64,000 bases of DNA from Candidatus Gastranaerophilales bacterium (GTDB taxonomy: Bacteria; Cyanobacteriota; Vampirovibrionia; Gastranaerophilales; Gastranaerophilaceae). Below the pieces are notes generated by a model, which saw nothing but the letters and a program-made list of their open reading frames with translations, ran no database searches and had not been told where the DNA came from. Where the stretch lies: assembly GCA_944326465.1 (NCBI GenBank), contig CALVEB010000004.1:21717-85716 (forward strand), written 5' to 3'. Shown one piece after another: positions 4,574 to 56,295 of the stretch (positions within the stretch are counted from its first letter, which is position 1; every line of letters begins with the position of its first letter). The translations under genes and the position numbers were made by a program.

Positions 4574-5776
4574 TTATACTTTAAATAGAATTTTTTTAAC
4601 AATTTTGCGCAGCGGATTTTTTATTTGCGGCGGCAGTATTCTGTATATAAACATAACAGGTTTCGGGTATTTGCCTGCAATAAGATATTTTTTATTTAAT
4701 TGTTTTAGGGTCTTTTTATCTTGTGATATTTCTTTTAAATACGCATTTCTTTTAGGATGCGATATTGAAGAAGAAATAATATTCTGATTATGCTTAATCG
4801 CAGCTTCTACAGGTACTTCTTTAACTAAACGCGCTTCTTTTTTGATAACTTTATTAAAATATTTCTCACCTTTAGCAGTATTCAAAAGTACTATAGATGT
4901 TCCCTTCCGGTCATTCAAGGAAGTATCAAATTCATCAACACCCCAGAAATCGCCAAGAGTTATATCTGCAACACGCGGCAGTTTATTAAATTTACAATCA
5001 ACACAACAGTCATTAATACTCATATTTGCGAGAAAAGCCTGCATATATGTATCTTCAAGTCCGGACGACGAATGCGTGGAAGCTTTAGTGTTAAGAGTTA
5101 TAATCGGTTCGGGATGCCAACCATTGATTTTATCTCGCATATTTATGCTAACAAGTTCACTTCCAAAATCATTCATACATTCTTGTTTGTACATTTCAAA
5201 AACTTTCCGCGACGGCACACCGTGACAAATTATTTCAAGAGTAAGCAGATTTTCGTAATCTTTGCCTAAGAAAAATTTTAAACCGGCTATCTGGCACGGG
5301 GTACCGGAATAAAGCACATTCCGTCCTTGTTGAAGTGCGGATTTTGCTTCTTGATATGTATTTTTAGTATCACTCTGTACATATTTAGAAATTTGCATTG
5401 GTAAAGTTTCTTCAACATTTTGTGCCATAGTGTGACAGACTTTCAGTTCCTTATCATATACCGCGCCAAACACTACGCCGTTGTTATTCACAATATAACG
5501 CGCAAGTGCCGGAAACGCGCCGCCGGATGAAGAATTAAGTCTTATTTGTTCATCATTATTTATAAAAGCATAAACCTTGGGTGATAAAGTATTATCAGAC
5601 ACATAGTGCTGAACCGGACAATTTTTTTCACATAATCCACAATTTGTACATTTATTTTTATCAATTTCAGGTTTCAAAAAACCTTTTTTATCTTCAATCA
5701 TTTTTATAGCGGAATTTGGACAGATATTTGCACAGGCTCCGCATCCGGTGCAGATTTTGAAATTGAGTTTATCCAT
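4574..5776 (-). CDS. Coenzyme F420 hydrogenase/dehydrogenase beta-subunit-like Fe-S protein (2x[4Fe-4S] ferredoxin N-terminal domain)
   Basis: CTGCGACANICP and CTNCGLCEKNCP ferredoxin motifs at the N-terminus. This family is commonly found next to polysaccharide pyruvyl transferases. Confidence 0.75.
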   Translation of the reverse strand: MDKLNFKICTGCGACANICPNSAIKMIEDKKGFLKPEIDKNKCTNCGLCEKNCPVQHYVSDNTLSPKVYAFINNDEQIRLNSSSGGAFPALARYIVNNNGVVFGAVYDKELKVCHTMAQNVEETLPMQISKYVQSDTKNTYQEAKSALQQGRNVLYSGTPCQIAGLKFFLGKDYENLLTLEIICHGVPSRKVFEMYKQECMNDFGSELVSINMRDKINGWHPEPIITLNTKASTHSSSGLEDTYMQAFLANMSINDCCVDCKFNKLPRVADITLGDFWGVDEFDTSLNDRKGTSIVLLNTAKGEKYFNKVIKKEARLVKEVPVEAAIKHNQNIISSSISHPKRNAYLKEISQDKKTLKQLNKKYLIAGKYPKPVMFIYRILPPQIKNPLRKIVKKILFKV

Positions 5777-23689: not shown

Positions 23690-23925
23690 ACCCTCTCCAA
23701 GGGGCGAGGGGCGGACGTAGTCCGCTCTTATACACTAGACACCCGCTAGAGGCACACAAAGTGTGCTCCTACACACTGGACACCCGCAAAAGTTAACGGG
23801 CATCCAGTATATAAAAGTGGACTGTGTCCACTCGCAAGGCGCCGACTCCCGCAAATCGTAGCAAAACTGCTGCGGTATGACGGATAAAAAACATGCAACG
23901 TGGAAAATCTCACAAGCATGTTTTT
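23690..23925 (+). repeat. Array of GC-rich modules: a variable perfect hairpin plus a conserved tail
   Basis: GCGGAC-gta-GTCCGC followed by tcttatacactagacacccgc. GGCACAC-aaa-GTGTGC followed by tcctacacactggacacccgc. GTGGAC-tgt-GTCCAC followed by tcgcaaggcgccgactcccgc. Two more hairpins share the loop cgtggRRaatctcaca (23891-23921 and 23979-24010). Confidence 0.7.
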
Positions 23926-23926
23926 A

Positions 23927-23963
23927 GGGGAATAAGGGATTAAGGAAATAAGGGAATAAGTTC
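23927..23963 (+). repeat. Octamer tandem repeat with TAA every 8 nt
   Basis: GGGGAATAAGGGATTAAGGAAATAAGGGAATAAGTTC, with TAA at 23933, 23941, 23949 and 23957. Confidence 0.8.
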
Positions 23964-24034
23964 TTTACAAAAAATAAGGCAACGTGGGGAATCTCACATT
24001 GCCCTATTTTGAAATCCTCTTAATCACTTAGTCA

Positions 24035-24151
24035 CTGTCTTGGATTTGCTCCACGCTCACGGAGACTCGCCTAAGGAGCGTTGCTCCAGTCGGCTCGTTC
24101 CGTTCGCTATCCGGACTCGCTACGCTCCGTCCGTCCGCAAATCCGCTAATC
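24035..24151 (+). repeat. 117-nt GC-rich core repeat, copy A (intergenic)
   Basis: 115 of 117 nt are identical to 46215..46331 by direct comparison. The ends are complementary (GGATTTGC...GCAAATCC) and there is an internal hairpin GGAGC-gtt-GCTCC. Confidence 0.9.
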
Positions 24152-24184
24152 ACTTAATCACTTCGAACTAAGAGGCCAAGCCTC

Positions 24185-25336
24185 TTAGTTCGACACACAT
24201 ATAGCGCGGCGGTTGCTGTTGTTCTTGAAGTACCAGATATTGTCATTGCCGGTCGTGTCGGAAGTGTCGAAGTACCGGTAGTACGCGGTAAGCGCATTGC
24301 GCTCCTCACTGGACCAGTAGTGGTAGCCAAGAGTAAGGGGAGGATTATCTTTGTATTCGTCCTTTACTTTAAGACCTAATTTGTCTTCGTTTGCTCCTAT
24401 TGTTACTTCATTGCCGTTGCTGTCTACATATAAATTACTTGCCAGTTGCGCAAGTTGTGCTCTCGTAGGAAGTTCCATGTCTTTATCTTTACATGCTTTT
24501 ATCGCTCCTGCCCAATAATTGGTTGAGCATCCACTGCTTGTATAGTTCTTATCATATTCACTTGTGCCATCACATGTGTCGATAGGGGTGTTTGCGGCAA
24601 AATCTGTGCTAAAGCACATGTCGCCTATAGGGTTATCGCAAGTAGAAAACGCTACACCTGATGATAATTCAATATCTTTTCCAACTCTATTAGGGCCTTT
24701 CTTTCCGTTTACATCTACCATATATGCCATGCAGCTTACCTGACTTCCTGTATCTTCTATTGGATCAGCGTAAGGGCATTCCGGCTGATATGCCATAATG
24801 ACTGTTGTCCCGTCTGCTACTACAAAGCTCATGGTATTTGTATTAGTTTGCCATTCCTTTAATCCCATGCTGCTTGCAGAAGTGAGACCGTTTGTTTCAA
24901 TTTCTTCTAACGCATCGTTCTTACCTGTTGTGACAACTTTAGGTGAATAACATTTGTTGATGTCATCCTTGTCACAGGTTTTGATTACTTTCATGTAGTT
25001 TTTGAAAGTGTTCATGAAATCCTCTGTAGTATCGTGTCCTGTCATTACACCGTCTACGTTCATACGGCGTACGGTTTCAGTGAGTTTCTTTTCCCACAGG
25101 TCTTTTGCTGTAGACCATGCTTTTTCATTGTGGTTCTGGATGAGACCAGGAAGGGTTAACGCGGCAACGATGCCGATAACCGCGAGGGTTATTAGGACTT
25201 CAGCCAAAGTGAATGCTGCTTTAGCGTGCGCCTGAGTGTAAGAGCGGGCTTGTCCACCTTTAGCGGTTGCCCGAGCGTAAGAGCACACTTGTGTGCCTTC
25301 TGCTAACGTAAATGCGTAATTTTCTGTTCTAGTCAT
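24185..25336 (-). CDS. Type IV pilin-like protein P2 (prepilin-type N-terminus, DUF1566-like C-terminus) with a 99-nt in-frame repeat insertion in the leader
   Basis: MTRTENYAFTLAEG-[insert]-AAFTLAEVLITLAVIGIVAALTLPGLIQNHNEK...VDVNGKKGPNRVGKDI...NYWAGAIKACKDKDMELPTRAQLAQLASNLY. RBS AAGGAGG. Confidence 0.7.
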   Translation of the reverse strand: MTRTENYAFTLAEGTQVCSYARATAKGGQARSYTQAHAKAAFTLAEVLITLAVIGIVAALTLPGLIQNHNEKAWSTAKDLWEKKLTETVRRMNVDGVMTGHDTTEDFMNTFKNYMKVIKTCDKDDINKCYSPKVVTTGKNDALEEIETNGLTSASSMGLKEWQTNTNTMSFVVADGTTVIMAYQPECPYADPIEDTGSQVSCMAYMVDVNGKKGPNRVGKDIELSSGVAFSTCDNPIGDMCFSTDFAANTPIDTCDGTSEYDKNYTSSGCSTNYWAGAIKACKDKDMELPTRAQLAQLASNLYVDSNGNEVTIGANEDKLGLKVKDEYKDNPPLTLGYHYWSSEERNALTAYYRYFDTSDTTGNDNIWYFKNNSNRRAICVSN

Positions 25337-25354: not shown

Positions 25355-25418
25355 GTTATAACATTATTATAACCTATTTACAAAAATTACTGTCATAATA
25401 GTTATAACATTGTTACAA
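25355..25418. promoter_or_regulatory. Two operator-like sites GTTATAACATT(A/G)TTA(T/C)AA, 46 bp apart
   Basis: Sites at 25355-25373 (inverted repeat GTTATAA/TTATAAC) and 25401-25418, between P2 and the divergent AbrB-like gene. Confidence 0.4.
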
Positions 25419-25438
25419 TGTTTAACCATGAAGGCTAT

Positions 25439-25588
25439 ATGATAAGAAAAATAATACAGATAGGAAACAGTTGGGGCGTTATAATTCCGCTGCCAATACT
25501 GGAACTGATTAAAATAAACCCAATAAAAGACAGAGTTGAATTTAGCGTTGAAAAAGATTGTATAATCATTAAAAAAGTTAAAGAATAA
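25439..25588 (+). CDS. AbrB/MazE/SpoVT-family small DNA-binding protein (49 aa)
   Basis: Below the ORF-track size cutoff. MIRKIIQIGNSWGVIIPLPILELIKINPIKDRVEFSVEKDCIIIKKVKE contains the IGNSxGVxIP swapped-hairpin motif. Confidence 0.6.
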   Translation: MIRKIIQIGNSWGVIIPLPILELIKINPIKDRVEFSVEKDCIIIKKVKE

Positions 25589-37989: not shown

Positions 37990-38661
37990 ATGAAAAAAGG
38001 AAACGCTTTTACTCTTGCAGAAGTTTTAATAACTATGGCAATTATAGGTGTCGTTGCAGCATTAACCATTCCGAACATTGTTCAAAACTACAAGAAAAAG
38101 GTTGCAACTGTAAGATTAAAAAAGTTTGTGTCTTCAATGCATCAAGCAATAGCACTTTCAGAACTTGAAAATGGCTCAATTACAAGCTGGAATGTAGCTG
38201 CATATATACCACCTACAGGCGATCCAAACAGTGATGAATACAAAGATGCATACAGACAGAACGCCAATAATGCACTTGCTTTTTTTAATCAATATCTTGC
38301 AAAATATATTAATCATACAAAAATCGAGGAGGCAAAAGACTACAAATCACTGGTATATTTTGCTGATGGTTCATGCATGTGGCTTTATAACGGAGGGCTT
38401 ATAGATATCAAATATGCAATTAATTGCAGCAGCGGACAGGATAAAAATGGTGTTGATGATTTTGCCTTCATCATTAATCATAAAGGCAATGACATTTATT
38501 TGGGGAACAAAAAGTTTAACGGTTATTACATTTCTCCAATAGACAGCTTAACTCGTGAGCAGGCAATTGCTAACTGTAAAAATAATGCATATAATTGTAC
38601 AGCACTTTTAGAAAAATTTGACAACTGGGAGTTCAAAGACGATTATCCCTACAAATTTTAA
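37990..38661 (+). CDS. Type IV pilin-like protein P3 (uninterrupted prepilin leader)
   Basis: MKKGNA|FTLAEVLITMAIIGVVAALTIPNIVQNYKKK. RBS AGGAGGG before ATG 37990. Confidence 0.8.
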   Translation: MKKGNAFTLAEVLITMAIIGVVAALTIPNIVQNYKKKVATVRLKKFVSSMHQAIALSELENGSITSWNVAAYIPPTGDPNSDEYKDAYRQNANNALAFFNQYLAKYINHTKIEEAKDYKSLVYFADGSCMWLYNGGLIDIKYAINCSSGQDKNGVDDFAFIINHKGNDIYLGNKKFNGYYISPIDSLTREQAIANCKNNAYNCTALLEKFDNWEFKDDYPYKF

Positions 38662-45934: not shown

Positions 45935-47380
45935 ATGTCTAATAATGCATCTACAAAGTATGCTTTCACTCTCGCGGAAGGCAGGGTGGACAAAGTCCAC
46001 TTTAATACTTGGAAAACTGCTAAAGGTGGACAAATCCAAGACATCGAACGCGAAGGCAGGCTAGCCTGCACCACCACTCAGGCGCCCGCAAAAGCGCAAC
46101 GGTGCCAATACGTCATTGCGAGCGAATGCGAAGCAATCCAGCCTATTGAAAAAGCGGGATTAGAACAACAGAATACGGGACTAATTCATGTAAAGAACTT
46201 ATTCCCTTATTTCCCTGTCTTGGATTTGCTCCACGCTCACGGAGACTCGCCTGAGGAGCGTTGCTCCAGTCGGCTCGTTCCGTTCGCTATCCGGACTCGC
46301 TTCGCTCCGTCCGTCCGCAAATCCGCTAATCCCTTATTCCCTTGTAGTAAACGCGTCGCCTTCACTCTCGCCGAGGTCCTCATCACCCTCGCGGTTATCG
46401 GCATCGTTGCAGCACTCACATTACCGGGGCTCATCCAGAACCACAATGAAAAAGCTTGGTCTACCGCGAAAGACCTCTGGGAAAAGAAACTCACAGAAAC
46501 CGTCCGCAGAATGAATGTCGACGGCGTAATGACCGGTCACGATACAACAGAAGCCTTCATGAACACTTTCAAAAACTATATGAAAGTAATCAAAACCTGT
46601 GATAACTCTGAGCTTAATAAATGTTACAGTCCGGAATTTGTGTTGACCGGTAAAAGAGATAATTTAGAGAAAAAATATATAGAAGATTTCAAAACAGCAG
46701 GTGACTTAGGAATAACAGATTGGAATACTAATACAATATCATTTGTTGTTGCAGATGGTACAACAGTTATTATGGCTTATAATCCAAAGTGTCCTTATGC
46801 AGATCCAGTTGAAGATACTGGCAGTCAAGTATCTTGTATAAGTATGATGATAGATGTAAACGGCAAAAAATCTCCTAACCGCGTTGGTAAAGATATTTTG
46901 CTCTCTAATGCAACCATTTCCACCTGCGATAATCCGATAGGAGATATGTGTTTGAGTACATCTTTAAAAATAGAAAAGATAGATACTTGTGACGGAACAA
47001 GTCCCTATGATTCGTTTTTTTCGTATGATAATGTAGGAAATGCTTGTGAAAATAATTACTGGGCAGGTGCTGTAAAAACTTGTAAAGACAATAACATGGA
47101 ACTGCCGACCGGTGCGCAATTTGCAGAAATAGCAAATAATTTATATGTAGACCGTAATGGTGACCCGATAAAATTAAAAGTAAACGGCAATAAAAGTAAT
47201 ATAAAATTTAAGGATGAATACAAAGACAATCCTCCTATTGCTCTTGGTAATTACTGGGTAAATGACGATCAGGGGTCGTTCGCAAGGATGCATTATTTTG
47301 GAGGAGAGAGTACCAGCGGAAACAGTAGTACTTCTAAACATAACAGTGCAGCCCGCAATGTTCTATGTATTTCAAATTAG
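45935..47380 (+). CDS. Type IV pilin-like protein P4 (DUF1566-like C-terminus) with a 396-nt in-frame repeat insertion splitting the prepilin leader
   Basis: MSNNASTKYAFTLAEG-[132 codons of repeat DNA]-VAFTLAEVLITLAVIGIVAALTLPGLIQNHNEK...IDVNGKKSPNRVGKDI...NYWAGAVKTCKDNNMELPTGAQFAEIANNLY. RBS AAGGAG. Confidence 0.65.
   Translation: MSNNASTKYAFTLAEGRVDKVHFNTWKTAKGGQIQDIEREGRLACTTTQAPAKAQRCQYVIASECEAIQPIEKAGLEQQNTGLIHVKNLFPYFPVLDLLHAHGDSPEERCSSRLVPFAIRTRFAPSVRKSANPLFPCSKRVAFTLAEVLITLAVIGIVAALTLPGLIQNHNEKAWSTAKDLWEKKLTETVRRMNVDGVMTGHDTTEAFMNTFKNYMKVIKTCDNSELNKCYSPEFVLTGKRDNLEKKYIEDFKTAGDLGITDWNTNTISFVVADGTTVIMAYNPKCPYADPVEDTGSQVSCISMMIDVNGKKSPNRVGKDILLSNATISTCDNPIGDMCLSTSLKIEKIDTCDGTSPYDSFFSYDNVGNACENNYWAGAVKTCKDNNMELPTGAQFAEIANNLYVDRNGDPIKLKVNGNKSNIKFKDEYKDNPPIALGNYWVNDDQGSFARMHYFGGESTSGNSSTSKHNSAARNVLCISN
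46215..46331 (+). repeat. 117-nt GC-rich core repeat, copy B (inside the P4 reading frame)
   Basis: 115 of 117 nt are identical to 24035..24151. It is flanked by reverse-orientation octamers (cttattcccttatttccc and aatcccttattccctt). Confidence 0.9.
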
Positions 47381-53438: not shown

Positions 53439-54137
53439 ATGTCATTTGCAGCAATACAAACGAATAGCGCAAGAGTTGGAACTTGCCCGCACGGATTACC
53501 GCTAGGAGCATGTCCGATTTGTAACGGTATGGGTGGCGGAGGCGGAATGAAGAAGGCTGATTTCTCCGCAAAACCGGGCGAAATGAGCTGGAATGAATGT
53601 GCCGCAATCGGAGCTTTCCTAAAGGCTCAACAAAATGCAAAACTCGCAAGAGAACAAGATGCCATTAATATTGCACAAAATATCAAAGCCTTTCAGCAGA
53701 CAATGACTAATGCGCATCAGCGTTTAACCTCACTTTCGCAGTTTTTTACGGCAAATACGCCTGCAATAATCGCAAAACCCGTTAATTTTGTTCTTAATAC
53801 AATTCTTGCAAATTCTATTAATATATTAAAGAACATGCCGGCTGCAATTACAACGACATTACAAAATATCTCGCAAAAACTCGCTGATATCTCCGATAAA
53901 CTAACTGCTGTATACGGTGAATTAAAAGCCGCTGTGCAGAAAAAAGTATCGGAAACGTTTAACGAACTCAAGAAAAAAGTTAAATCATTATTCGCTATAT
54001 TCAGCCCGCTGGATGCTGATAATGATGACAAGCAGATTGATGAAACTAAAAAAGCCTTTGAATTAAAGACTTTTATACATCATTTGTATAAAAAATTAAC
54101 AGGCGAGCAGAAGGAAGCAACACAAGAAAGTCGTTAA
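53439..54137 (+). CDS. Hypothetical protein with an N-terminal Cys knuckle and a Gly run, followed by helical/coiled regions
   Basis: CPHGLPLGACPICNGMGGGGG followed by low-complexity helical sequence. Its stop codon is the first TAA of an octamer TAA array. Confidence 0.55.
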   Translation: MSFAAIQTNSARVGTCPHGLPLGACPICNGMGGGGGMKKADFSAKPGEMSWNECAAIGAFLKAQQNAKLAREQDAINIAQNIKAFQQTMTNAHQRLTSLSQFFTANTPAIIAKPVNFVLNTILANSINILKNMPAAITTTLQNISQKLADISDKLTAVYGELKAAVQKKVSETFNELKKKVKSLFAIFSPLDADNDDKQIDETKKAFELKTFIHHLYKKLTGEQKEATQESR

Positions 54138-54162
54138 GACGATAAGACGTTAAGACGTTAAG
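54132..54162 (+). repeat. Octamer tandem repeat (TAAGACGx) with TAA every 8 nt
   Basis: TAA at 54135 (the gene's stop codon), 54143, 54151 and 54159. Confidence 0.8.
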
Positions 54163-54214
54163 TTCGTATCAATTAATAAAATTAACGAATTCAAATACAA
54201 AAAGGGATAAAAGG

Positions 54215-55720
54215 ATGAACATAACACCGTTTCATGATAATGAAACAGCAAGACAGCAAAGAAATTTAACAACAACGCAAAAACGCGCTAATTCTAATAC
54301 AAAAGAGGGTGTTCTTGTAAATAATTTTATAAAAGATGCAGATACCTGTGTTAATCTTGATAACACTGTTGATACACTGATTATATCAGATCGTGTCAAG
54401 CTGCCGCAAAAGCTTAATGAAGATAAAATAGTTAAAGATAAAACTCTTCTACCGATAAGCGGCGCGGCGTTAGGTGTAATGGGAGTATTTGCAGGAATCA
54501 CGGCGTTTATCAGTCATAACACAAAAATTGCCACCAATATGGCAAAGAATATGATTAAAGAAAAATGGCTGCCTACTCTGACGCGTAATATATCTATAAA
54601 CGATGAAACATCACAGGCGATATTCCAGATGGTTACAAACCCTAACCGTAAAACGATTATTGCGGGTGTTGGGGTGTTTTCGCTCACGGCGACTGCATTT
54701 ATGGGAAAAACTTTCTTTGACGGGTTCAAAGATATCTGGGTTAAAAAGCGCGAAGCGGATATTCAAAAAAACTTGCAAGAGCAGCTTATTGATGTAGAAA
54801 CCCAGTCCTTTTCAGGCAAAATCCAGATTATAAGAAACACCCTGTCTGACAAAGCAAAAGAGTTAAATAAATATATAGCGGAAGAAGATGAAGCAATCCT
54901 CCCGAATTTTGGTAAATCCACTCAAATTGCGTTTATGGGCGGTAAACAGCAATCGTATAATGAGAAAAAAGCAAGTCCGCTGGCGTTTTTTGCGCTTGGG
55001 GCGGCAACTGTTGCGGGAATTATAGGGCTTTCTTATCTGTCTTTAAAGAATTTAAGTAAAAGTAAAGGGCATTTAAGAGATTATATATCATATACTGAGG
55101 ACATCATCAGTAAAGTTGTCAAAAATTCAACAGAGCAAACAAGAAAGCAGGACAGTGAAAATCTTGCGTTTCTTTTCCAGTCAATAGACGCATCGCCTGA
55201 AACAATTAAGCGGCTTATGGAAGGTATCAAATGGGAAAAGCCGGAATTTGTGAATGATTTTATAAAAAATACTGTATCTAAAATTCAAACATCAGCGGTT
55301 AAGGTGAATTCGCACATTGGCGGTGACGGAACGCCAAAACCTGCGTTTTCATCGTTTGTTGATGATTACAGGGCGTTTTTATACAACTGGCTTTTAGATA
55401 CTGATAATGCGCAATTCCGTCAGCTATTCTTCGGAATGACCGGTGCAGCGGCTGTTTCTTATGGCGGTAAGCTTGTAGGAGATGCTATAAAAGAAGTTCA
55501 GGTCAAGAAAATCAATGCGCAAACCGAGCTTGATTTGCAAAAACGGCTTGTATCAACCGAGTTACGCAACTTTAAATCTAAAAAAGATGCGGCAATTCAG
55601 CCGCTTATGGAGGAATTCTATAAGCAGGTGCAGAACGGCAAGCCTAAAGAGCAGCTTAAAACAATGGCGGACAACATTCTGTTTGAAGTCAAAAACGGCC
55701 CGCCGTTTGTATATTCTTAG
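54215..55720 (+). CDS. Uncharacterised multi-pass membrane protein (501 aa)
   Basis: ORF with several hydrophobic segments (LLPISGAALGVMGVFAGITAFI; IIAGVGVFSLTATAFMG; LAFFALGAATVAGIIGLSYL; LFFGMTGAAAVSYGG). Confidence 0.6.
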   Translation: MNITPFHDNETARQQRNLTTTQKRANSNTKEGVLVNNFIKDADTCVNLDNTVDTLIISDRVKLPQKLNEDKIVKDKTLLPISGAALGVMGVFAGITAFISHNTKIATNMAKNMIKEKWLPTLTRNISINDETSQAIFQMVTNPNRKTIIAGVGVFSLTATAFMGKTFFDGFKDIWVKKREADIQKNLQEQLIDVETQSFSGKIQIIRNTLSDKAKELNKYIAEEDEAILPNFGKSTQIAFMGGKQQSYNEKKASPLAFFALGAATVAGIIGLSYLSLKNLSKSKGHLRDYISYTEDIISKVVKNSTEQTRKQDSENLAFLFQSIDASPETIKRLMEGIKWEKPEFVNDFIKNTVSKIQTSAVKVNSHIGGDGTPKPAFSSFVDDYRAFLYNWLLDTDNAQFRQLFFGMTGAAAVSYGGKLVGDAIKEVQVKKINAQTELDLQKRLVSTELRNFKSKKDAAIQPLMEEFYKQVQNGKPKEQLKTMADNILFEVKNGPPFVYS

Positions 55721-55752
55721 AAGGGAATAAGGGAATAAGGAAATAAGGGAAT
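55720..55752 (+). repeat. Octamer array (GGGAATAA-type); left arm of a 33-bp imperfect inverted repeat
   Basis: GAAGGGAATAAGGGAATAAGGAAATAAGGGAAT, with TAA at 55728, 55736 and 55744. It abuts ATG 55753. Confidence 0.8.
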
Positions 55753-56295
55753 ATGTGTATTCAAGCGATAAATACAACTTATAACAATCAAATCTGTCAA
55801 ATAAGAAATAGTTTCATAAATGAAACGAACTTATTCCCCTATTCACCTATTTCCTTATTCCCTTCTGATTCTTCTTCAGTCAAATATGTTACATCCACTA
55901 CATCAAACTACTGTTCCTTTAACCAGCCTAAAGTGGATTACTTTGTTAAACAAAAGGAACAGGCGCTGCCGTATTTGACAGATATTCTCCAACACTCCAA
56001 TAATGAGGCTCAAATAACAGAAACATTATATATAGTAGACAGAATGATTGAAAACGGCACTAAAGGCGTTGATAAGATGTATCCGACACTTTCCCGCTTT
56101 AATAATACTAATTCACCGTTTATACAGACATTTCTTGCCGGAATATACAGAAAAATACAGGTTCCGGACGCATTTGGCCCTCTGGTTGCCATGTTAATAC
56201 GCAATTCTCTTAACCCTCCGCAAACAAATTTCGATCCGAATGAAGAGGTCGGAGGTGCAATACTGGCCTACCTTTCAGACCGTTTTAGACATTGA
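55753..56295 (+). CDS. Hypothetical protein; the C-terminal half is weakly HEAT-like helical
   Basis: 180-aa ORF. Codons 27-38 are encoded by the reverse octamer array (NLFPYSPISLFP). The start is uncertain. Confidence 0.4.
   Translation: MCIQAINTTYNNQICQIRNSFINETNLFPYSPISLFPSDSSSVKYVTSTTSNYCSFNQPKVDYFVKQKEQALPYLTDILQHSNNEAQITETLYIVDRMIENGTKGVDKMYPTLSRFNNTNSPFIQTFLAGIYRKIQVPDAFGPLVAMLIRNSLNPPQTNFDPNEEVGGAILAYLSDRFRH
55830..55865 (+). repeat. Reverse-orientation octamer array; right arm of the inverted repeat
   Basis: CTTATTCCCCTATTCACCTATTTCCTTATTCCCTTC. Its reverse complement matches 28 of 33 positions of the left arm. Confidence 0.8.

Follow-up and report, generated by a model that had tools for sequence, protein, structure and literature searches.

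Prepilin leaders are textbook-short, i.e., 5-30 amino acids (aa) ending in Gly. In class III prepilins, the leader is cytoplasmic and is removed by the prepilin peptidase PilD, and the conserved Gly at position -1 has been called crucial for this processing (PMC6497953; the pattern is given in PMC8578077). A prepilin leader of 26 aa has already been termed unusually long (PMC12448462), and the genomes of Gastranaerophilales encode pilA, pilB, pilC, and pilT together with the prepilin peptidase gene pilD (PMC5877343). Here, we have analyzed a stretch of 64,000 nt (64 kb; hereafter, the window) of contig CALVEB010000004.1 from a Candidatus Gastranaerophilales bacterium (Melainabacteria), which contains a pilin-like gene, P2, whose 40-aa leader includes two translated copies of a dispersed hairpin repeat and a second, relic copy of the FTLAE motif. 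A paralog of P2 in the same window, P4, has a leader of the same kind.

To our knowledge, the palindromic elements of Rickettsia (RPEs) are nearly the sole well-known case of in-frame colonization of genes by repeats. They are small palindromic repeats found in-frame in protein-coding genes (PMC10969869). The repeats of the P2 family resemble them in being a dispersed family of short palindromes that is translated, stop-free and with the frame kept, within host open reading frames (ORFs), and that has non-coding copies too. Unlike the RPEs, which are single insertions of about 100-150 bp into many unrelated housekeeping genes and are retained in the mature protein, the repeats described here are units of about 40 nt plus other modules, form multi-module mosaics, and are confined to the leaders of three pilin-like families, with one possible exception (ORF 55753..56295); they also belong to another phylum, and the two systems have been compared by description. 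RPE colonization thus appears to be the closest known phenomenon, and what would be new here is the piling up of repeats in a disposable pilin leader.

Cyanobacterial small dispersed repeats and MITEs (transposable elements of the miniature inverted-repeat type) show similar intergenic mosaics, arm variants, and strain polymorphism. The repetitive extragenic palindromic (REP) sequences, with the bacterial interspersed mosaic elements (BIMEs) and the REPIN palindromes, are likewise short GC-rich hairpins with arm variants that form intergenic mosaics or clusters and differ between strains (PMC3116915), but they are extragenic almost by definition, whereas 43% of the module DNA of the P2 family lies inside coding leaders. 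P2 shares with class III prepilins a hydrophilic and net-positive leader, Phe at +1, Glu at +5, and about 21 hydrophobic residues, and its large mature part with a putative C-terminal lectin-like module is like that of the modular pilins PilB and PilC of Streptococcus sanguinis (PMC6497953). Unlike them, the family has leaders of 40 aa (P2), 141 aa (P4), and up to 244 aa, Ala at -1, repeat DNA, and a second, relic FTLAE. In the opa genes of Neisseria, CTCTT pentamer repeats lie in the region coding for the signal peptide, and most copies are OFF. The P2 family is similar in having repetitive DNA in the leader-coding 5' end of a multi-copy surface family, where the frame decides expression, but its modules are complex, there is no simple tract, and about 99% of the copies are ON, and thus an opa-like contingency system is unlikely. 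Finally, integrative elements with att sites in tRNA genes regenerate the end of the target gene and leave behind a duplicated copy that diverges; the double FTLAE is similar in outcome, not in mechanism, and no integrase, att core, or identical core duplication was found. In the literature searched, neither prepilin leaders that are giant or built from repeats nor this family of Gastranaerophilales had been described, a result that is weak evidence given the limited full-text coverage.

The product of P2 (Table 1) begins MTRTENYAFTLAEGTQVCSYARATAKGGQARSYTQAHAKAAFTLAEVLITLAV (the longer N-terminal read is MTRTENYAFTLAEGTQVCSYARATAKGGQARSYTQAHAKAAFTLAEVLITLAVIGIVAA…) and has the layout MTRTENY-AFTLAE-(27 aa)-AFTLAE-VLITLAV…, i.e., a repeat-containing leader, an alpha1N hydrophobic helix, and a mature region of about 340 aa with a confidently modeled C-terminal domain. 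The two copies of the 19-mer encoding AFTLAE, gcatttacgttagcagaag (25315-25297) and gcattcactttggctgaag (25216-25198), start 99 nt apart, exactly as stated in a preliminary description of this DNA made from its letters alone. They differ at 4 of 19 positions, every difference being synonymous, and the same is true of all pairwise differences among the five AFTLAE-coding copies of the window (two in P2, two in P4, and one in the pilin-like gene P3), when random substitutions of one base in these codons are expected to be synonymous in only about 25% of cases. The two copies in P4 differ at 3 of 19 positions and start 396 nt apart. The tail of the second P2 unit fits the tail consensus of other hairpin units. 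That the insert is made of the module types seen in the adjacent intergenic field was also stated previously and holds, since units of the same type, GCGGACgtaGTCCGC and GCACACaaaGTGTGC, each followed by its tail, are found on the + strand at 23710-23790. The sequence said to be common to the P2 and P4 inserts is there as well: the 15-mer gctaaaggtggacaa is exact in both, accompanied by a colinear 21-mer at 90%, and a repeat finder pairs 25250-25290 of P2 with 45993-46033 of P4 (73% over 41 nt). The first unit of P2 is homologous to this P4 unit and to the intergenic unit 23751-23790.

Table 1. Features of the P2 and P4 loci and of related sequences in the window.
Feature	Position	Strand	Details
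P2, pilin-like (class III signal peptide) gene	24185..25336	minus	383 aa; ORF and translation, hidden Markov models (HMMs)
Shine-Dalgarno (SD) sequence AAGGAGGG of P2	25340..25347 (25347-25340)	minus	3 nt 5' of the ATG (25336-25334)
Original short P2 leader MTRTENY plus first (relic) AFTLAE	25297..25336	minus	no hydrophobic helix after it; no match of the prepilin HMMs here
P2 repeat unit 1	25258..25296	minus	hairpin GCACACaaGTGTGC (25296-25283) and 25-nt tail TCTTACGCTCGGGCAACCGCTAAAG (25282-25258), ending CGCTAAAG
P2 repeat unit 2	25217..25257	minus	slightly degenerate hairpin GTGGACaaGCCCGC (25257-25244), tail TCTTACACTCAGGCGCACGCTAAAG (25243-25219), "ca" linker
Functional A/FTLAE (copy 2, 25216-25198) plus alpha1N hydrophobic segment FTLAEVLITLAVIGIVAALTLPGLI	25139..25216	minus	HMMs, invariance, hydropathy, AlphaFold2 (AF2) model
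Intergenic repeat field downstream of P2	23664..24184	none	hairpin-plus-tail units, "ggaataag" repeats, terminal inverted repeat (TIR) element
P3, DUF6613-type pilin-like gene	37990..38661	plus	ordinary short leader MKKGNA/FTLAEVL; internal "empty" reference
P4, paralog of P2	45935..47380	plus	141-aa leader
P4 leader parts	first AFTLAE 45962-45980; repeat mosaic 45981-46357; functional AFTLAE 46358-46376	plus	
P4 mosaic modules	hairpin units at 45985 and 46055; TIR element 46212-46343		

The pilin-like nature of P2, already proposed in the preliminary description, is backed by profile HMMs: PF07963 matches residues 39-61 with 22.6 bits (cut-off 21.2), and TIGR02532 matches residues 40-62 with 21.2 bits (cut-off 16.3). 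In P4, TIGR02532 scores 17.4 bits at residues 143-163, and PF07963, with 19.6 bits, falls just under its cut-off. In both proteins, the matches are confined to the second FTLAE. After F41..E45, with Phe at +1 and Glu at +5, P2 continues with VLITLAVIGIVAALTLPGLI, which reaches a 19-aa Kyte-Doolittle (KD) hydropathy of 2.47, and a sequence search of the PDB returned only the alpha1N helix of other pilins. In the AF2 model, residues 1-40 are coil, with a predicted local distance difference test (pLDDT) score of 24-28, and a helix starts at residue 44, although the model is uninformative for residues 1-232 as a whole (pLDDT <50, shallow alignment).

More than 3,000 homologs of P2 were found, and the metagenome-assembled genome BRZ_E__bin153 alone holds about 40 dispersed paralogs. 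For the analysis of the leaders, we have taken the best 120 of these homologs (71-95% identity), several counts being based on 118 of them. The membrane-proximal copy of the motif reads AFTLAE in 116 of 118 homologs and GFTLAE in the other 2. The upstream copies are degenerate in 11 of 32 cases (ALTIAE, AFTFAE, VFTLAE, TFTLAE, AFTLLA), and more decayed forms (AFSHVE, FAFSNTE, TFVLAE) can be recognized by eye. The first copy of P2 itself is YVFTLAE or HAFTLAE in close strains. In one of them (L055), about 99% identical and with the same purM-purN-purD…GerE-sigma70 neighborhood, the leader differs from that of P2 by two single-nucleotide polymorphisms (SNPs), both non-synonymous, one of them being the A-1V change that yields YVFTLAE; the nearby changes in the mature N-terminus are synonymous. 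Because copy 2 is invariant, copy 1 is decaying, and the HMMs recognize only copy 2, the first FTLAE is a relic and not a second processing site. Thus, the insert is better described as lying within the leader, 5' of the only functional A/FTLAE, than within the mature pilin after FTLAE, and the predicted prepilin-peptidase site of P2 falls between A40 and F41.

The mature part of the best 120 homologs is near-invariant from AFTLAEVLITLAVIGIVAALTLPGLIQNHNEKAW onward, and their leaders (median, 76 aa) range from 4 aa (MKYG/FTLAEVL) to 235 aa, or up to 244 aa when measured on the DNA loci from the SD-preceded ATG to the functional A/FTLAE. Members with leaders of 4-10 aa coexist with long-leader members. 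These leaders have a mosaic makeup, in which a limited number of peptides translated from lineage-specific DNA repeats recur, including G-RLAC-TTTQVAAK from the hairpin-plus-tail unit, LDLLHAHGDSPKERCSS… from the TIR element, and further modules such as PLGEGGRRPDEG, ECEAIQPIEK, and HLITQSLSHLITS. One member (L046, CALVSV010000160.1) is a 95%-identical fragment of the pilin-like family on a 2.6-kb contig binned as "uncultured Bacilli", which is probably mis-binned.

The reading frame of the leaders was analyzed at the DNA level in the 47 genes whose upstream region was complete (P2, P4, and 45 fetched loci). All 47 have an ATG whose frame is open into the mature part, preceded by an SD sequence in 45. 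Over 4,939 leader codons, there is not a single in-frame stop, while the alternative frames contain 325 and 427; 40 of the 47 leaders have at least 40 aa, and all 40 contain stops in both alternative frames. With a stop rate of 6-9% per codon, an unselected frame is expected to stay open for only about 12-15 codons. For P2 by itself the open frame is weak evidence, since its 99 nt are stop-free in two of three frames, whereas the 396 nt of P4 are open in the reading frame alone (0 stops vs. 4 and 7 in the others). As the preliminary description had supposed, the preservation of the frame is therefore selective and not due to chance. Out-of-frame copies at a similar frequency, which it had named as the finding that would speak for neutral insertion, were looked for, and frame-broken alleles amount to only 2 of the 120 top homologs, clearly short of such a frequency: in one (L057), the ORF starting at the SD-preceded ATG is 1 nt out of register, and in the other (L058), a deletion inside a leader module shifts the frame. 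Neither the unit of about 40 nt nor the TIR element of 122 nt is a multiple of 3, so the frame must be filtered and is not intrinsic to the modules. In fact, of the three frames of the 122-nt TIR element, the two without stops are both used, and the one with stops never is. These lengths and the two TIR frames rule out that the inserts are in-frame by construction, with the exception of a nested 78-nt element that amounts to 26 codons. An assembly artifact is also discarded, since five strain variants share the P2 leader and the exact P4 protein is encoded on at least 10 independent contigs.

We have also observed that in ten loci (L002, L004, L007, L008, L015, L021, L028, L043, L044, and L048, position ~2990), a module ending …cgcaaggggcgaggaATGcgcgcc brings an in-frame ATG three codons 5' of AFTLAE (…GRGMRA/AFTLAE), with a purine-rich sequence before it. 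These ten-odd paralogs might also initiate there, giving a normal short leader.

The repeat modules were studied over about 370 kb of DNA. The analyzed sequences contain 55 hairpin units with perfect 6-bp stems, and a tail-anchored test on 97 distinct sites found a perfect stem of at least 6 bp in 35% of them, compared with 1.2% of shuffled controls. The end of the stem is always 24-25 nt before the AAAG end. The stems use at least five arm sequences (GCAGGC, GCAGAC, GCGGAC, GCACAC, and GTGGAC), so the two arms co-vary. Hairpin units are present both in leaders and in intergenic DNA, and the module DNA as a whole lies 43% in pilin leaders, 52% in intergenic regions, and 5% in other ORFs, nearly all of which are spurious, repeat-only ones. 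A query with the leader alone gave 60 matches among 5.8 billion proteins, i.e., pilin-like proteins of three mature families, with the modules placed before AFTLAEVLITLA, plus short repeat-only ORFs. The TIR element, of 122-132 nt and with the ends GGATTTGC…GCAAATCC, has the features of a MITE, being small, multicopy, flanked by TIRs, and devoid of a transposase; its copies in the intergenic field (132 nt, 24032-24163) and in the P4 leader are 95-97.5% identical, and further copies are found in many leaders.

In the field downstream of P2, which also contains "ggaataag" repeats of 8-nt period at 23920-23969, three clean insertions/deletions (78, about 115, and about 256 nt) distinguish the window from L055. 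The 78-nt element is nested in the intergenic TIR copy of L055 (~4700-4900), is polymorphic between strains, and appears as the peptide VLLAGVKRVCNAAAFASPFRPLPARA in the leaders of some homologs. Since strains that are about 99% identical differ in these modules, the modules are currently mobile or recombining. No unambiguous target-site duplication (TSD) could be read at the three strain-polymorphic intergenic insertions or at the TIR element, whose flanks are themselves short tandem repeats.

Taking these results together, we propose, with a probability of about 0.62, that the cytoplasmic leader, presumably removed by the prepilin peptidase, tolerates the insertion and exchange of repeats, and that selection filters the frame. 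The P2 leader, i.e., the n-region of its class III signal peptide, would have been lengthened by two in-frame copies of the GC-rich hairpin-plus-tail repeat of about 40 nt. Translation would start at the SD-preceded ATG at 25336 and run through the old short leader, the relic AFTLAE, and the two units to the functional A/FTLAE and its helix, and the leader would stay in the cytoplasm until presumably cut at A40/F41. Being cytoplasmic and removed, the leader would therefore be almost free to vary in sequence and length; the remaining requirements would be an open frame without stops, the absence of a membrane-like segment, and a net positive charge. The mobile, recombining modules would exploit this freedom across more than 40 paralogs, giving rise to leaders of 4 to 244 aa. 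No transmembrane-like segment above a KD value of 1.6 is found in any of 107 leaders (the maximum is 1.37, vs. 2.47 for the true helix), 100 of 120 leaders are net positive, and the hydrophilic leaders of P2 and P4 have net charges of +3 and +6, respectively. Such hydrophilic, net-positive leaders fit a cytoplasmic n-region, as expected.

The origin of the double FTLAE can be approached from its distribution. The preliminary description had raised the question of how many FTLAE-type genes carry an insert after the motif, and the FTLAE/G-hairpin junction has proved to be recurrent: an FTLAE-like copy is found upstream in 50 of 216 family members, and a hairpin unit follows it in every one. The spacing between the upstream and the functional FTLAE is most commonly 20 codons (one unit), is 33 in P2, and reaches 202. 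The intact first copies exist in many synonymous versions behind unrelated native leaders. However, the claim that P2 and P4 result from two independent insertions could not be maintained. P2, P4, the locus L031, and other paralogs are colinear through the ATG, a short native leader, the FTLAE 19-mer, the GG-hairpin, the tail, and GCTAAAG, as seen with the repeat finder and by direct alignment, and in P2, P4, and L031, GCTAAAG is followed by GGTGGACAA, the sequences diverging only beyond it. L031 is the cross-species positional ortholog of P2 (purD is 85% identical), with a leader of 209 aa vs. 40 aa in P2, and since it shares the first FTLAE and the start of the unit, the arrangement must be older than the species split, and the length of the array has changed since.

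A filled/empty pair within one genome is informative in this respect. L023 (…HLITSQKA-AFTLAE-unit-AFTLAEVL) and L017 (…HLITSQKA-AFTLAEVL) are identical over the 70 nt upstream, and copy 1 of L023 resembles the native FTLAE of L017 (2 of 19 differences). The unit, the second copy, and GTATTAATCACC of L023 form a block that is identical in L011, L013, L024, and L042, i.e., in five paralogs in all, and the mature regions of the paralogs are mosaic too. This is an exchange of blocks among paralogs and not a fresh TSD. We suggest that the double FTLAE would arise when a recipient gene acquires, behind its own FTLAE, a block that begins with a hairpin unit and ends with AFTLAE plus the mature N-terminus. 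The acquisition would probably occur by recombination anchored in the conserved region coding for the mature N-terminus, with an illegitimate joint at GCNGA(A/G)G; this sequence, which encodes …AE, resembles the end of the unit tail, GCTAAAG, in 6-7 of 8 bases. The upstream copy would then decay, and such formation followed by decay would have occurred repeatedly. Beside these genes, two short ORFs (P0127 and P0128) combine a native leader with a degenerate FTLAE (AFILAE), a hairpin unit, and other modules, have no mature pilin part, and look like 5' remnants of pilin-like genes in repeat fields.

Several observations weigh against the reading of a tolerant, removed leader. The residue at -1 is Ala in P2, in P4, and in 116 of 118 homologs, Gly being found in only 2; because of this Ala in place of the canonical Gly, cleavage can only be presumed. 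A prepilin peptidase gene was not located for this genome. The leaders of P2 (40 aa) and P4 (141 aa) are outside the typical 5-30 aa, and leaders of 40-240 aa far exceed every characterized prepilin leader (8-30 aa). Regarding the joint, no pair with identical flanking copies was found among the family members, nor a clean TSD or a donor/recipient pair proving the recombination route, and the FTLAE/hairpin joint recurs with copy 1 in many synonymous forms, which passive tolerance by itself does not explain and which may point to a site-specific process. Moreover, the long leaders of nearly all paralogs and the P4 leader found unchanged on at least 10 contigs could reflect a function of the leader. 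If P2 were not cleaved, the repeat segment would be a cytoplasmic tail before the membrane helix; the argument of tolerance would hold, but the label "leader" would fall. A bolder reading of the same data, tentative and in our opinion doubtful, is that the leader-coding 5' ends are a dedicated docking and exchange zone for a lineage-specific set of repeat modules, in which the joint recurs because the FTLAE-coding end mimics the tail end, and that the giant leaders are used by the cell.

The recurrent joint is also what would be expected if a mobile hairpin unit homed to the FTLAE-coding sequence, inserted after the Glu5 codon, and duplicated about 19-20 bp, P2 and P4 then being independent events, and we regard this possibility as unlikely. 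Every one of the 50 upstream copies stands directly before a hairpin unit, about half of the leader units follow FTLAE, the synonymous variants of copy 1 behind unrelated leaders look like a repeated capture of functional N-termini, and P4 contains a possible nested insertion between imperfect repeats of about 12 bp, cgcg(g)aaggcagg. Nevertheless, targeting expects the flanks of recent insertions to favor GCNTTYACNYTNGCNGAR, and the units that do not follow FTLAE come after …GATGAGGG, …CACCAAG, …ACG, or …CCG, or lie in intergenic arrays. About three quarters of the family members have repeat-built leaders without any upstream FTLAE copy, which leaves insertion at one codon, the other claim of the preliminary description, without general validity. 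The flanking copies are never identical, as the mismatches within P2 and P4 illustrate, the second copy of the filled/empty pair belongs to a different sequence lineage common to four other paralogs, and the first units of P2, P4, and L031, being colinear and homologous, are not independent.

That the long leaders are functional in themselves is, in our view, improbable. They might serve as homology handles to shuffle promoters and leaders with adhesin-type cassettes, tune translation or PilD processing, or remain as the uncleaved cytoplasmic tail of a bitopic protein, a possibility that Ala at -1 leaves open. Long leaders are kept in 40 of 47 copies despite the usual deletion bias of bacteria, P4 keeps its leader exactly on all those contigs, mosaicism and block sharing among paralogs are extensive, and the same modules precede three different mature pilin-like families. 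On the other hand, the leaders show no conservation of amino acids and vary in length from 4 to 244 aa with short-leader members present in the same family, and the P2 leader is predicted to be disordered and changes non-synonymously within the species. Neither do they look like regulatory RNA: the 161-nt 5' region of P2 folds no better than shuffled sequences (z = 0.10), and Rfam, searched at E<=1 for a riboswitch or other structured RNA in the insert, returned nothing but a chance match to CRISPR-DR, below threshold and located elsewhere in the gene. A promoter scan gave promoter-like sites not above the shuffled expectation.

Phase variation, in which the gain or loss of modules that are not multiples of 3 would switch paralogs ON and OFF, is a very remote explanation. 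It agrees with the lengths of the unit and of the 122-nt TIR element, with the two natural alleles that are frame-broken by indels within leader modules, and with the tandem repeats of 8-9-nt period in some leaders, but a contingency system should show many OFF copies, and here the frame is ON in 47 of 47 loci and in 118 of the 120 top homologs. With Tandem Repeats Finder, the P2 leader proved free of tandem or simple-sequence repeats, and P4 yielded just two tiny arrays (8-9 nt). Except for SNPs, the P2 leader does not differ among five strain variants. Finally, it is scarcely credible that the insert is absent from the protein, either through a true start just before the second FTLAE or through a ribosomal bypass that joins the two GAA codons, of the kind known from T4 gene 60 and mitochondrial byp elements. 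In favor of this are the identical take-off and landing contexts (GAA-G), the hairpin directly after the first, and the ATG that a module places three codons 5' of AFTLAE in about 10 paralogs belonging to another genome. However, P2 has a strong SD at the upstream ATG, lacks any further ATG after codon 1 up to the mature start (the sole in-frame GTG lies inside the hairpin stem), and has no stop after the take-off codon; the gap is kept in frame family-wide, and the open frame of 47 of 47 leaders, vs. 752 stops in the other frames, would lose its reason.

In the rest of the window, an unbiased repeat scan found genuine dispersed repeats only at P2, at P4, in the field adjacent to P2, and in a patch at 55.7 kb. 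In this patch (55715-55866), a repeat with an 8-nt period, "gggaataa/cttattcc", lies in inverted copies on both sides of the start of an ORF that is not pilin-like (55753..56295, + strand). The second copy falls in frame within this ORF and encodes NLFPYSPISLFP, a peptide that also occurs, in identical form, as a module of pilin leaders (P0033 and P0047). Apart from this ORF, no real-looking gene outside the pilin-like ones was seen to contain a leader-type module. A short tandem "gacgttaa"-type repeat directly after the stop of ORF 53439..54137 (54127-54167) matches the pilin-leader module that encodes NVLTSYRLNVLTSS. A divergent gene for a small HTH_3/XRE-type regulator is found directly upstream of the pilin-like gene at at least 11 loci (L001-L052) and of P4 (45481-45804, minus strand), which suggests that the two form a repeated cassette. 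Diverging from P2, there is an ORF of 56 aa (25418-25588, + strand) that contains …IGNSWGVIIP… and is 100% conserved in L055 and L056 and 86% in the cross-species ortholog locus L031; it may resemble AbrB/MazE-type DNA-binding folds.

The C-terminal 140 aa or so of P2 (within 24185-24900) are modeled with confidence (pLDDT 80-90). A fold search with this model gave no match at E<=0.001, and its weak resemblance to the C-terminal domains of Bd2740 from Bdellovibrio (Foldseek probability 0.96) and Lcl from Legionella (0.60), both with E ~0.1, is only suggestive of a C-type-lectin-like character. This domain is the most variable part among the P2 paralogs, which is consistent with an adhesin repertoire.

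If a family with Ala at -1 and translated repeat leaders of 40-240 aa is indeed processed, it would stretch the substrate range assumed for prepilin peptidases, and the class III leader would offer selfish repeats a low-cost safe harbor within a coding region. In annotation, widely divergent N-termini, truncated starts, and spurious repeat-only ORFs are to be expected from gene callers for the P2 family. Should the leader-coding ends instead be a docking zone, the leaders would, for example, be homology handles through which adhesin cassettes and expression signals are shuffled, or would gate processing by the prepilin peptidase; this would be a new way to diversify or regulate the subunits of type IV filaments, with a peptidase that handles Ala at -1 and leaders tenfold the normal length. 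As for the organisms themselves, the P2 family would provide uncultured gut Melainabacteria with a large, fast-recombining, lectin-like repertoire of pilin-type surface proteins.

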